DNA of 64,000 bases from an uncultured Chlamydiae bacterium (GTDB taxonomy: Bacteria > Chlamydiota > Chlamydiia > Chlamydiales > JAJFMB01), in NCBI GenBank assembly GCA_963696295.1, contig CAVOJR010000001.1, positions 2,848,001 to 2,912,000 of the forward strand, written 5' to 3'. Both the position numbers and the translations under genes were made by a program. The notes under the pieces were generated by a model, which did not search any database, was not told the DNA's origin, and saw only the letters and a list, made by a program, of their open reading frames with translations. Shown here piece by piece: positions 12,678-16,707 of the stretch (position 1 is the stretch's first letter; each line of letters opens with the position of its first letter).

Positions 12678-12965
12678 ATGCTATTGCCATCCAGATCTTT
12701 ATCAATAGCTTCAGATGATGCTGTTGACATAGCGCCCGTAAATTTGCAGAACGTTTCTGTGATCAAGATGGACGTTGAAGGGTATGAAATGGAAGTGATT
12801 GCCGGGGGAATGGAAACCATTTTGCGCAATAAACCTGTGCTGTTTGTGGAAATTTGGAGAGCCGGTATTGAGAGGTATGAGCAAAAAGTTCAAACCATAG
12901 AAGCCTTAGGTTACACATCCGTTTGGTTGGGCGACGATGACTTTCTCTTTCTCCCAAATTCTTAA
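12678..12965 (+). pseudogene. C-terminal fragment of an FkbM-family methyltransferase
   Basis: IKMDVEGYEMEVIAGG...KPVLFVEI present; N-terminal SAM-binding motif absent. Confidence 0.75.
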
Positions 12966-13603
12966 TTTGTCTCTATGGGGATCTTGGCAAGCTCTTCCAA
13001 TTTGCTGCCTGATTTTCGATAGAGATAAAGCGCCCAGGTGGTATTCTCGCTCAAGTTTTTAGCTTTTAAATTTAGGGTCTTATTCTCTAATTTTCTGATA
13101 GCCGGTGTGATTTTTTCATCTGTTTTTTGACGTAAGGAAATATGATAACCGAATGTTTTCGGTTTGCCTTTTATAAATTCTGGGGAGATGCCAATGAGTT
13201 TTACAAATTTTGATGTGATGGCAAATAAATCTGGGGAAGTGAGATGGATAAAATCCAGCTTTGGTTTTTGCTGTAGGGTCTTTATGTTAATAGTAATGGA
13301 TTTTCTTTCGTTGACAGCTTGTTTTAAAGCCTCAATATATTCCTCTTCAGCGGCCGTCTTTCCGGGAAAAAATCCCGTCAAAGAGCAATGTGGGGGGTAA
13401 TTTAACACAGCAGGGTTTTTCAAGTTCCGGTCTTTGACCCTTTTCCAAAATTTACTTAATTGTTTACCTAGAGCTCCCGCAGGGCGGAGATCTAAAATGT
13501 AATCGGGATCAGAATGGCAATTGCAGGATCTGATGGGATTCAGCTCTGACCCCTGAAGTGAACAATTAAAAGTTAATAGAAATAAGAGAGCAAGCCTTAG
13601 CAT
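12962..13603 (-). CDS. Secreted 2H phosphoesterase-like protein (UBASH3/Sts-type), copy 1
   Basis: Signal peptide; two Hx[S/T] motifs (PHCSLTGFF, YHISL); AAGGAGG RBS. Confidence 0.75.
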   Translation of the reverse strand: MLRLALLFLLTFNCSLQGSELNPIRSCNCHSDPDYILDLRPAGALGKQLSKFWKRVKDRNLKNPAVLNYPPHCSLTGFFPGKTAAEEEYIEALKQAVNERKSITINIKTLQQKPKLDFIHLTSPDLFAITSKFVKLIGISPEFIKGKPKTFGYHISLRQKTDEKITPAIRKLENKTLNLKAKNLSENTTWALYLYRKSGSKLEELAKIPIETN

Positions 13604-13811
13604 GAAATCCTCCTTTTAGGATTTCTTCCTTATATTCTTGAGGCAAATTTATTTGCAATGCAGAGTTTGGAAAGAAGCAGCTCAACAAAAAGCTGATAAT
13701 CCTTCCGTCGGAAATGAAGGATTAACATGAGCAAAAAGTTCAAACCATATAAGCCTTAGGTTACACATCCGTTTGGTTGGGCGACGACGACTTTCTCTTT
13801 CTCCCAAATTC

Positions 13812-14456
13812 TTAATTTGTCTCTATGGGGATTTTGGCAATCTCTTCCAATTGATTGCCAGATTTTCGATAGAGATAAAGCGCCCAGGTGGTATTCTCGC
13901 TCAAGTTTTTAGCTTTTAAATTTATGTACTTATTCTCTAATTTTCTGACAGCTGCTGTTGTTTTTTCATCCGTTTTTTGACGTAAAGTAATATGATAGCC
14001 AAAAGTTTTTGGTTTGGCTTTTATAAATTCAGGAGAAATGCCAATGAGTTTTACAAATTTTGTTGTAATGGCCAATAAATCGGGGGAAGAGAGGGAGATA
14101 TAATCCAGCTTTGGTTTTTGCTGCAGGGTTTTAATGTCAATGGTAACGGGATTTTTACCTTTAACGGCTTTTTGTAAAGCTTCAATATATTGCTCTTCAT
14201 CGGCAGTGTTTCCAGGGAAAAATCCCGTCAAAGAGCAATGAGGAGGATAATTTAACACAGCCGGGTTTTTCAAGTTTTGGTCTTTGACGCTATTCCAAAA
14301 CTTTCTCAACTGTTTACCAAGAGCGCCCCCGGGACGCAGATCTAAAATGTAATCGGGATCAGAATGACGACAGCGGCAGGATCTGACAGGATCTGGTTCC
14401 GAGCCTTGAAGCACAAAGTTAAAAGTTAATAGAAATAAGAAAGCGAGCCTTAGCAT
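13812..14456 (-). CDS. Secreted 2H phosphoesterase-like protein (UBASH3/Sts-type), copy 2
   Basis: Close paralog of copy 1; PHCSLTGFF and YHITL; AAGGAGG RBS. Confidence 0.75.
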   Translation of the reverse strand: MLRLAFLFLLTFNFVLQGSEPDPVRSCRCRHSDPDYILDLRPGGALGKQLRKFWNSVKDQNLKNPAVLNYPPHCSLTGFFPGNTADEEQYIEALQKAVKGKNPVTIDIKTLQQKPKLDYISLSSPDLLAITTKFVKLIGISPEFIKAKPKTFGYHITLRQKTDEKTTAAVRKLENKYINLKAKNLSENTTWALYLYRKSGNQLEEIAKIPIETN

Positions 14457-14482
14457 GAAATCCTCCTTTTAGGATTTCTTCC

Positions 14483-15757
14483 TTATATCCTTGAGGCAAA
14501 TTTATTAGCAATGCAGAGTTTGGAAAGAAGCAGCTCAACAAAGAGCTGATACTCTTTTCGGTCGTAATAATAGACGTTAGACTTCGGGTCGGGTGTGGTT
14601 TGAAGGAACCCTATTTCATTCACTGTCACTTTGACGGGAGAGGCGGTCAAAGAGGGATCGATTAGCGCGAGGGCCAGGATGACGTCCGAAAGGGTGAATT
14701 GCAATCCCGCACAGGGTTGCACCTTATGGGCGAAACTTAATTCCCGCTCCAACTTATCGAGAGTTTCCCGGTGGTTGTTTAAAGCGAGCAATTCCGATCG
14801 CAAACATTCCAATTGTGCCGTCAATTGGAGAAATCGTTCCCCGCACCACATTCTGGACAGAGAAAAAAGCTGGTCGTGAAGTTGAGATAATTGCTCTTTT
14901 TTCTGAGGGAATAGAACAGATAATTTCTGAATCAGCCCGGTAATTTCACTCAAGCTAAGAGAGAATTTGTACTTATTCCAATTAGAACTTAAGGTCCTAA
15001 ACATAGCGAAAAAGGGGTCATTCGATTGGCGGATCCTTTCAGCGATGGGATGGGTCCAGGGGTATTGGCAATAAACAGAGCCCTGGTTTCCCAAAACCCC
15101 ATATGTTTCTACGATGCCGATTTTTTTGAAATTTTTACTGAATTGGTCCAGCATGATTTGCAGCCGGACGGAAACGGATTGATCAGGGGTGAAATGAAAG
15201 GAGCGGACTATCTCTTTATCATCGAGCGCTTTTCGCAGATTGAAACTCCCATAACAAATGAGATCGCTTTTTTGGGAGAGCGCCTTATCGAAGGAGAGAG
15301 CGGCAAGCTCCTGGACAGGCTTGAGCTGAATAATCAAAGGGCGCTTCGCTCCTTTGACGAATTGAATCAGCGCTTCCGTTCCCTCATCTTGATGAGGAAA
15401 TGGATAGGCTTTAAATTTCTCATCCAGCTCCTCTCCGTCATAGGGAAAGAGGTTGTCTAGGGTGGATCTCCCTTCTTTTACTTCAATCTTGACCGGTACG
15501 TTGTAATAGCAACAGAGCAATGTCTCCATTCTGGCTTTTTTGATGGCGCTGTTGCCTTCTCCCACAATCACCATTTGGATCGGATACTTATGATGGAGGC
15601 AGTAGAGGCGGTTTGCCTCGTCGAAGATTATCTTTAAGGCGAGAACATCGTCGGGTTCCAGATCGGTGGCAATGACAATCTCATCATAATCAGCGAGTTG
15701 AAATACTCCATGGATTTCGGAAAACAGGAATAGCAGAAGCGCCAGGAACCTTACCAT
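14483..15757 (-). CDS. Secreted nucleoside-hydrolase-like protein
   Basis: Signal peptide; IATDLEPDDVLAL resembles the DxDxxxDD metal-binding motif; LSDVILAL near the C-terminus. Confidence 0.55.
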   Translation of the reverse strand: MVRFLALLLFLFSEIHGVFQLADYDEIVIATDLEPDDVLALKIIFDEANRLYCLHHKYPIQMVIVGEGNSAIKKARMETLLCCYYNVPVKIEVKEGRSTLDNLFPYDGEELDEKFKAYPFPHQDEGTEALIQFVKGAKRPLIIQLKPVQELAALSFDKALSQKSDLICYGSFNLRKALDDKEIVRSFHFTPDQSVSVRLQIMLDQFSKNFKKIGIVETYGVLGNQGSVYCQYPWTHPIAERIRQSNDPFFAMFRTLSSNWNKYKFSLSLSEITGLIQKLSVLFPQKKEQLSQLHDQLFSLSRMWCGERFLQLTAQLECLRSELLALNNHRETLDKLERELSFAHKVQPCAGLQFTLSDVILALALIDPSLTASPVKVTVNEIGFLQTTPDPKSNVYYYDRKEYQLFVELLLSKLCIANKFASRI

Positions 15758-16707
15758 GAAATCCTCGAATTCAATTCGTAGATTACCCTGTCGACCTCAT
15801 TTTTGTTTTCCGAGTAAAAGTCTAAATGGATAAAAGTGGGGACAACCCCAAGGGCGTCTATAGTTTTGGCGACGTGGTTGTAAAGACAGTTAAAGCTGTT
15901 CGCCTGTCTGGCCAAGGGCAAGCTTCCTGTGATATGTGGCGTGACGAAATGGTTAAAGAGAAATATCGTATTTTTGGGCTCCACATTTCGCCGTTCGTAG
16001 GCGTCGGTATAGAGGAGTTTGCCAAACTCAGCATCAAAAAAGCGAATGGCTTTATAGCTATAGGGATTTTCAATGAAAAAATCTCTGGTATATAAAAAGT
16101 CGGGCGTTGGAGTGTCGGCAAAGACCACGAGGCGCTTATTACTGCCGATCATCTCCTCGATGGTGGGCCAGGCCTCCTCCGTTGATTGCCCATGCCTATA
16201 GCGGACAATATCAGCCGCTTCAAATGGAGCGGCGAGCTCATCGCCCGGAGCAAAGTTATTCAATAGAAGTGTGATAATCTCCCTTGGGTTCTCATCCAAA
16301 AAGTCGCGCATCTGCTCAAGCAGCTGCTGCAAGGGGATATTCGCGGCATCGAGACGCCATAACTTATCCCCGACAAATTCTTTTATCTTCTCTTTGAGAG
16401 TTTCCAGCGGCAACCTATCGAGGTAGGTCTCAAATTTCTCATTAGTCAAGGCGTGGGCGACGACAATTTCTCCGTTATCTTTCCGGTGAATGGGCAGTTT
16501 GAATGCGCGGACCCCATCGCTCAACTGCTCTGAAATGGTGCGGTTTTGATTGGCCACGGGATTCGGTATTTTGCCAAAAAGCTTCTTTCCCGCATGGCTT
16601 GAGGCGTTGTGAGCCATCACTTGAGTCACTTCATTGTATTTTTTATCCAGGCAGGGCGCCTCAATGCAGAAGTGGAGCAATAAAAGGGTCAGGTAAAATA
16701 TTTTCAT
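15751..16707 (-). CDS. Secreted PI-PLC X-domain-like phosphodiesterase
   Basis: Signal peptide; AHN...NQ...EQLSDGVR...VAH, FLDENPREIITL, WPTIEEMI, KRLVVF, NHF. Confidence 0.8.
   Translation of the reverse strand: MKIFYLTLLLLHFCIEAPCLDKKYNEVTQVMAHNASSHAGKKLFGKIPNPVANQNRTISEQLSDGVRAFKLPIHRKDNGEIVVAHALTNEKFETYLDRLPLETLKEKIKEFVGDKLWRLDAANIPLQQLLEQMRDFLDENPREIITLLLNNFAPGDELAAPFEAADIVRYRHGQSTEEAWPTIEEMIGSNKRLVVFADTPTPDFLYTRDFFIENPYSYKAIRFFDAEFGKLLYTDAYERRNVEPKNTIFLFNHFVTPHITGSLPLARQANSFNCLYNHVAKTIDALGVVPTFIHLDFYSENKNEVDRVIYELNSRISW

Follow-up and report, generated by a model that had tools for sequence, protein, structure and literature searches.

A patchwork of three hydrolase genes and a tandem duplicate in a variable region of an uncultured chlamydial genome

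Layout of the cluster and its tandem duplication

The window analysed here is a stretch of 64,000 nucleotides from the genome of an uncultured Chlamydiae bacterium (assembly GCA_963696295.1, contig CAVOJR010000001.1, positions 2,848,001 to 2,912,000). Our subject is a cluster of four open reading frames (ORFs), all on the minus strand, within window positions 12962..16707. It encodes a PI-PLC-like protein, a protein of nucleoside-hydrolase (NH) fold and two copies of a UBASH3-type 2H phosphoesterase. The original prediction, made from the sequence alone, read these genes as an operon of four exported hydrolases that form a cascade in which host cyclic nucleotides or phosphodiesters are broken down as far as nucleosides and bases, for signal jamming or salvage. 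Our analysis indicates that the families were named correctly, but the cascade was not supported. In the direction of transcription, the genes are:

15751..16707, minus strand: PI-PLC X-domain-like phosphodiesterase, 318 amino acids (aa), signal-peptide-like N-terminus
14483..15757, minus strand: NH-fold protein, 424 aa, signal-peptide-like N-terminus
13812..14456, minus strand: 2H phosphoesterase copy b (2H-b), UBASH3-type, 214 aa, signal-peptide-like N-terminus, motif histidines H73 and H155
12962..13603, minus strand: 2H phosphoesterase copy a (2H-a), 213 aa, 81% identical to 2H-b

The ORF coordinates agree with the predicted arrangement of four co-directional genes, with a 7-nt overlap of the PLC-like stop and the NH start (ATGGTAA) and 26 bp between NH and 2H-b. 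The operon of four hydrolases held only in part: there are four ORFs, but they amount to three genes and one duplicate, and the last gap, between 2H-b and 2H-a, is 208 bp long because the second 2H gene belongs to a tandem duplication. A signal peptide had been proposed for each protein, and all four N-termini are indeed signal-peptide-like, in that a hydrophobic 9-mer (Kyte-Doolittle 2.7-3.2) follows a basic residue; here, in the 2H clade and across the genome, leaders were called by a hydropathy heuristic. A stricter genome-wide rule was passed by three of the four, the NH protein being missed because of an internal hydrophobic stretch. GC content at third codon positions was 0.36-0.39 in the 2H genes, 0.53 in the NH gene and 0.57 in the PLC-like gene, compared to 0.57-0.66 in five core genes. 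These differences among the cluster genes would fit separate acquisition.

The duplication, of about 850 bp per unit, spans both 2H genes and left the following traces:

12877..13713, no strand assigned: duplication unit 1, with the FkbM 3' end, 2H-a and a copied NH 3' end
13727..14567, no strand assigned: duplication unit 2, with an FkbM 3' remnant, 2H-b and the NH 3' end
13633..13722, minus strand: copy of the last ~30 NH codons, upstream of 2H-a (tblastn, 80% over 30 aa)
12678..12965, plus strand: remnant of an FkbM methyltransferase gene, truncated at its 5' end and convergent on 2H-a; lies at the left edge of the variable region
14457..14478, minus strand: 8-bp hairpin over the 2H-b Shine-Dalgarno site, just after the NH stop
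13604..13625, minus strand: identical hairpin and Shine-Dalgarno site before 2H-a

Between 2H-a and 2H-b, synonymous divergence (dS) was 0.50 and nonsynonymous divergence (dN) 0.093. The resulting dN/dS of 0.18 suggests that both copies are maintained under purifying selection, and an assembly artefact was rejected in view of the dS of 0.50. The non-coding ends of the repeat are closer to each other (83/85 and 111/118 identical bases) than its coding middle (166-169/200), a pattern that points to gene conversion, or else to recombination with a diverged allele. NH, 2H-a and 2H-b share a stretch of about 21 nt at the ribosome site and start codon (15746-15766, 13592-13612 and 14445-14465, respectively), and a 17-nt pattern from this start region occurs three times in the genome, at exactly these three genes. 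The hairpin at the NH stop, called without a shuffle control, may couple translation of 2H-b to that of NH. A promoter scan was uninformative (6 sites versus 7.7 expected), and three soil sequencing runs yielded short pieces only, none of them bridging the cluster. No RNA dataset was among the sequencing runs listed with the sequence.

Three hydrolase families

The AlphaFold model of the 2H protein (pLDDT 88.6) adopts the two-lobed 2H fold, with YjcG as best match (Z 13.7, root-mean-square deviation (rmsd) 3.2, 162 aligned residues). All 20 matches with Z of at least 5 were 2H-fold chains, among them LigT-like proteins (Z 11.0-11.8), Arabidopsis CPDase (Z 10.8), Usb1 and AKAP18, and Foldseek recovered LigT at E 1.7e-5. 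Viral 2H enzymes, including those that cut 2',5'-oligoadenylate (2-5A) and cyclic GMP-AMP (cGAMP), matched at Z 6-9.4 and thus rank below YjcG, LigT and CPDase. The predicted structure therefore speaks for the 2H assignment. While the fold is shared with YjcG, LigT and CPDase, which are cytosolic enzymes, sequence identity to them is only 11-16%. Both proteins retain the two Hx[S/T] motifs seen in the original prediction (H73-C-S-L and H155-I-T-L in 2H-b), and the motif histidines are invariant in 23/23 aligned homologues. The block quoted there as 'PGG...LRKFW' is present in 2H-b but not in 2H-a. Against Pfam, the 2H protein scored 26.1 bits, under the 27-bit cut-off, and 14 of the 23 family members gave a weak match to PF13563. 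Neither the 2H nor the NH profile had a meaningful sequence match in the PDB, and plasmids contained no match to either.

The resemblance to UBASH3/Sts proteins, noted in the original prediction, was recovered by direct profile search. A profile built from the 23 homologues gave 181 matches at E<=0.001 among 1.84 billion proteins, of which the best 150 were listed and 16 were scanned with Pfam. It reached at least nine UBASH3 proteins (E 1.2e-7 to 9.1e-6); these nine, of the 16 scanned, carry UBA plus 2H and/or SH3 and histidine-phosphatase domains. Leaderless bacterial proteins outscored UBASH3 in the same search (from E 1e-14), and the ESM Atlas clusters of such proteins are mostly cyanobacterial and actinobacterial. 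Both the UBASH3/Sts/TULA domain and the cluster proteins have two Hx[S/T] motifs, and YjcG is the closest solved structure to both (PMC10218301 for the UBASH3 domain). In contrast to the animal proteins with their UBA-2H-SH3-histidine phosphatase architecture, 2H-a and 2H-b are stand-alone, single-domain bacterial proteins of 213-214 aa with leaders, and they form a separate branch.

Their position was examined with two unrooted trees. In a 147-row FastTree phylogeny, from which 18 fragments and one spurious repeat protein had been dropped, the cluster proteins fall inside a 65-row branch in which 54 rows carry a hydrophobic leader, compared to 1/73 of the other non-UBASH3 rows. In a 39-row IQ-TREE subset, the exported branch (support 98/93) was separate from UBASH3 (100/97); the latter's closer neighbour is a leaderless bacterial group, whose branch (90/81) is not starred. 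The cluster proteins thus lie outside the UBASH3 clade in both trees. Horizontal transfer from animal UBASH3 was rejected on account of these separate branches, and UBASH3 appears to be a cousin rather than the donor. Judging from the leader counts, export is probably a trait of the whole 2H clade, whose few members with known taxonomy are all chlamydial.

Three side observations concern this family. A separate leaderless UBASH3-type group comprises P0125, P0132, P0146, P0153, P0175, P0183, P0187 and P0193. Viral contigs contained no 2H relative when searched with the family alignment or with P0183, so that descent of the 'YIIYLHP' side group from giant viruses found no support. Two members of the exported clade, each with a longest contig of 44818 bases and so probably encoded on one and the same contig, are fusions with degenerate 2H motifs: P0098 is joined to an FkbM methyltransferase and P0101 to an N-terminal domain that matches no Pfam family.

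The model of the NH protein (pLDDT 92.3) matched 12 NH-fold chains at Z 19.6-22.1, and Foldseek placed it in the NH fold at E 3e-8. Hence both folds named in the original prediction were recovered by structure search on the predicted models. No sequence of the 31-member NH family reached the gathering score of Pfam PF01156 (best E 0.045, one member), and this Pfam family had no match anywhere in the genome. The family profile does align with a Pfam-positive chlamydial NH (hhalign probability 97.4%, E 1e-11), which further supports an NH-like assignment. The best structural matches were uncharacterised proteins of Sylvanvirus, Yasminevirus and Fadolivirus (E 1e-14 to 1e-15), and three viral contigs encode relatives of the protein. 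These are giant-virus contigs (L071-L073). Two further loci with relatives, L010 and L011, are filed as bacterial metagenome-assembled genomes (MAGs), but their gene content looks non-bacterial, with virus-like genes noted by eye in L010; in two other chlamydial MAGs an NH-like gene is split into two ORFs (L005:3637-4968 and L009:5749-7399).

The conserved residues of the NH protein, mapped onto the Ca2+ site by motif and not by superposition, are D32, D36, D37, N69, N173 and D358. The four aspartates are each kept in 30/31 family rows and fit the Ca2+ site described in PMC8910321. K146, E150 and N173 are invariant in 31/31 rows, chlamydial and distant members alike; K73 and R76 are kept in 30/31, R175 is nearly invariant, and the last Asp is preceded by S in 15/31 rows and by A in 15/31. 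The protein shares the fold, the DxxxDD motif and a distal Asp with PF01156 nucleoside hydrolases and XopQ/HopQ1. Unlike the PF01156 enzymes, it has the first D of the DxDxxxDD fingerprint replaced, no counterpart of the His/Trp/Cys leaving-group activator of groups I-III, an additional helical bundle (an insertion of ~90 residues at about residues 260-350) and a deletion of the loop preceding N173. In classical NHs this loop carries the contacts to the 5'-hydroxyl. From sequence, the pocket would suit a 5'-substituted riboside.

An altered site of this kind could also belong to a dead binder of ribose or ADP-ribose, in which case the leaders would be generic to genes acquired in this lineage and unrelated to function. 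Catalytically inactive proteins of NH fold that retain Ca2+ have been described (XopQ and Sde_0182), and XopQ lacks the activator, yet some active NHs also lack the His (PMC8910321). Leaders are commonplace in this genome, where 346/2328 ORFs of at least 150 aa (~15%) pass a crude rule, normally cytosolic enzymes among them. Nine other co-directional leader runs of three were found, and no run of four passes the rule. The constancy of K146, E150 and N173 in all 31 rows, and of K73, R76 and the three N-terminal aspartates in 30, argues against a dead site, and we regard this alternative as highly improbable.

For the PLC-like protein we found 11 homologues (25-31% identity, the nearest 29%), all with PF26146 and PF26178, the accessions of a PI-PLC-X-like family. 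Their profile matched Listeria PI-PLC at E 9e-10, which bears out the PI-PLC-like assignment, whereas searches of single proteins against Pfam, NCBIfam and PDB sequences gave nothing decisive for this protein or for NH. H33, N34, R67, H253 and D296 are invariant in 11/11 homologues and H85 is kept in 10/11. The likeness to the bacterial PI-PLCs of Listeria and Bacillus thus comprises homology as well as the two histidines at the catalytic positions of the X-domain. K70 and P72 stand where most relatives have M and D. In the Listeria-profile alignment, the same positions are E and D in mammalian PLC-delta1, which we take to be Ca2+ ligands. Their replacement suggests that the Ca2+ site is probably absent.

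Bacterial PI-PLCs make cyclic inositol phosphate. The cluster might therefore remodel lipids or surface glycans, with inositol 1,2-cyclic phosphate as the product of the PLC-like protein, and this or a similar sugar cyclic phosphate opened by the 2H proteins. The FkbM remnant next to 2H-a and the domain fusions of P0098 and P0101 would fit such a role. However, both fused 2H domains are degenerate (HxK, HxA), the FkbM remnant and the FkbM domain of P0098 have no real similarity (E 0.13), and PLC and 2H genes did not occur together in the other genomes sampled. We therefore consider this explanation very unlikely.

Distribution and the cascade question

We searched for the three families in 399 other genomes of the order, many of them fragmented; one genome, G094, was not scored. 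The 2H profile matched 6/399 genomes (G039, G179, G240, G280, G322 and G360), and the NH profile matched 4/399 at full length (G045, G076, G080 and G135). Two more NH matches were weak and partial: that in G062 (E 3e-4, a helical stretch of a 1200-aa frame) was dropped as likely spurious, and that in G226 is a more distantly related NH, Pfam-positive and leaderless. As both genomes lack the 2H family, the overlap count is unchanged. The PLC query, a single protein, gave one weak, leaderless match in a further genome. No genome among the 399 had two of the three families. In profile scans of 70 loci, of which many were short or duplicated, the only ones with two families came from this genome.

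These results weigh on the proposed cascade. Tight spacing, leaders on all four proteins and correct family assignments speak for it, as do the fold matches to viral 2H enzymes acting on 2-5A and cGAMP, although these score under YjcG, LigT and CPDase. Co-occurrence of the genes elsewhere was not found as far as sampled, either as a 2H gene with a full-length NH gene in one of the 399 genomes or as linkage in the other genomes' loci; the original prediction had named such a lack as refuting it. Zero overlap between families this rare rules out a module that is obligatory, whereas a facultative one would be compatible with it. The four steps come down to three genes and a duplicate, and the PLC-like protein has no place in a nucleotide chain, since PI-PLC acts on lipids or inositol phosphodiesters. 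A direct relay from 2H to NH on cyclic nucleotides also meets a chemical objection. The Sts-1 phosphodiesterase hydrolyses 2',3'-cyclic nucleotides to 3'-nucleoside monophosphate (NMP), and the natural target of the UBASH3 2H domain is an open question (PMC10218301). NH sites bind ribose O2' and O3' through Ca2+ (PMC8910321), so a canonical site would not admit a 2'- or 3'-NMP released by 2H. A phosphatase would be needed in between, and no nucleotidase linking the two is encoded in the cluster. Taken together, a dedicated cascade appears unlikely.

The genomic setting points to local assembly. Two further features of the window are of interest:

12658..45573, no strand assigned: lineage-specific region of ~33 kb between pdhC and lpxD, with the cluster at its left edge
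40153..41583, minus strand: PARG-like gene with a signal-peptide-like N-terminus and an intact GGG-x7-QEE motif, in the ~33-kb region

In both genomes of the same family the pdhC-lpxD interval measures 2-3 kb. Besides the cluster and the PARG-like gene, the region carries ankyrin, ABC transporter, OPT, Fic, kinase and DUF3638 genes. The genome encodes four TLC/NTT nucleotide transporters and the named relatives of the cluster proteins belong to Protochlamydia and Parachlamydiales, so the organism is likely an environmental chlamydia.

Some other features of the window were recorded in passing. At 11122-11407 lie four tandem copies of a ~72-nt unit with the pdhB stop region and the first pdhC codons, the last two identical. 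Two minus-strand ORFs of 1599 and 1508 aa (26805-31604 and 31622-36148), 17 bp apart in different frames, are possibly one split gene; the first matches DUF3638. Short tandem repeats with repetitive ORFs on both strands occupy 36218-36683.

Salvage enzymes, ADP-ribose and interpretation

Elsewhere in the genome (G000, contig C1), APRT (858460-859041, plus strand, locus L115), UPRT (766085-766741, minus strand, L118) and phosphoribosyl pyrophosphate (PRPP) synthetase (3087035-3088069, minus strand, L117) have signal-peptide-like N-termini, and each scores above its NCBIfam cut-off. Leaderless paralogues of UPRT and PRPP synthetase are also present. The NH-positive genome G045 shows a similar pattern, with leaders on an HPRT (L121) and on a probable UPRT (L135). 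Salvage outside the cytoplasm is therefore plausible. The salvage role foreseen in the original prediction gains some support from these enzymes, but we found no CNT-type transporter.

We favour the view that three unrelated hydrolase genes and a tandem duplicate were likely assembled in this lineage alone, and that their products are probably Sec-exported and act as independent scavengers (probability roughly 0.6). Exported proteins would reside in the periplasm or the inclusion lumen. There, the 2H proteins, like the related Sts-1 domain, would likely open cyclic phosphates, for example the 2',3'-cyclic nucleotides left when RNA is degraded. For the NH-fold protein, whose pocket is likely remodelled, Ca2+-dependent hydrolysis of ribosyl bonds is the likely activity; 5'-substituted ribosides (NMP, NAD, ADP-ribose) seem more probable substrates than plain nucleosides, and the PLC-like protein would likely cleave inositol phospholipids without Ca2+. 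Bases set free in this way could re-enter nucleotides through the leader-bearing APRT, UPRT and PRPP synthetase. We propose an analogy to CpdB/UshA-type periplasmic nucleotide scavenging, in which exported phosphodiesterase chemistry acts on RNA breakdown products, though the cluster enzymes are of unrelated fold.

Several observations weigh against this reading. The overlap of PLC and NH genes, the hairpin-bearing gap and the start sequence exclusive to three of the genes speak for a transcription unit that is integrated, at the least across PLC-NH-2H-b. The overlap between 2H and NH genomes expected by chance is 0.06, so its absence is uninformative on a facultative module; the fragmentation of many sampled genomes and the single PLC query count in the same direction. 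Leader-bearing phosphoribosyltransferases occur in only one of the four other NH-positive genomes, G045. Finally, this genome (97% complete) contained no match to PF02872 (CpdB/UshA-type nucleotidase), PF01773 (CNT-type nucleoside transporter) or PF00445 (RNase T2). The dephosphorylation step is thus missing, and the uptake side of salvage is weakened.

The PARG-like gene raises the question of whether 2H, NH and an exported PARG form an ADP-ribose-processing set that erases host NAD-derived signals. PARG would free ADP-ribose, 2H would open ADP-ribose-1'',2''-cyclic phosphate (Appr>p) or a related cyclic signal, and the XopQ-like NH would bind or cleave the distal ribose. The gene lies in the same ~33-kb region, but 23 kb from the cluster. 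In G240 a homologue precedes a 2H gene by 24 bp, a single adjacency, and G179 has both genes unlinked. Among 400 genomes, PARG-like proteins were found in 4 at E<1e-50 and in at least 11 with the catalytic domain. The enrichment among 2H-positive genomes (hypergeometric P 0.001-0.02) is post hoc, rests on two genomes and uses a background count that is a floor. The other four of six 2H-positive genomes lack a close homologue, and one of the four NH-positive genomes has a distant one. Structurally, ADP-ribose-bound XopQ matches the NH model near the top (Z 20.7, rmsd 4.2, 287 aligned residues, within 1.5 of the best) and likewise lacks the activator (PMC8910321), and the 2H model has the Appr>p phosphodiesterase of Arabidopsis among its matches, at Z 10.8; the folds, however, do not single out these substrates. 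We consider such a set possible but unlikely. As side observations, the putatively exported PARG-like family is represented by L059:4772-5941 and loci L086-L091, and the C-terminus of the window protein is a ~95-aa domain common to many of the 141/401 matched genomes.

A broader reading, for which we see only a small chance, is that some environmental chlamydiae export a nucleotide toolkit of UBASH3-type 2H, XopQ-like NH, PARG and APRT/UPRT/PRPP synthetase, which would erase host signals and rebuild nucleotides for uptake by NTT transporters. If so, this locus would be one place where the parts came together; the signals erased would be host cyclic-nucleotide or ADP-ribose signals, and the nucleotides would be rebuilt outside the cytoplasm.

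On our preferred reading, of independent scavengers brought together in one lineage, the gene cluster is a patchwork confined to one genome and does not represent a new conserved system. What appears new is at family level and concerns two families without a name: the putatively exported UBASH3-type 2H clade and the divergent NH-fold family common to chlamydiae and giant viruses. Our literature search found no description of either, and no paper on chlamydial NHs or secreted phosphoesterases, though bacterial UBASH3-type proteins may have been noted before. The NH-fold family ties chlamydiae to giant viruses below the level of Pfam detection, and its altered pocket may carry new chemistry. The UBASH3-type subgroup is not confined to animals, and its small stand-alone bacterial cousins offer an easy test system for the question of what UBASH3/Sts 2H domains act on. 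With an exported 2H clade, cyclic phosphates would be hydrolysed at the host-symbiont interface.

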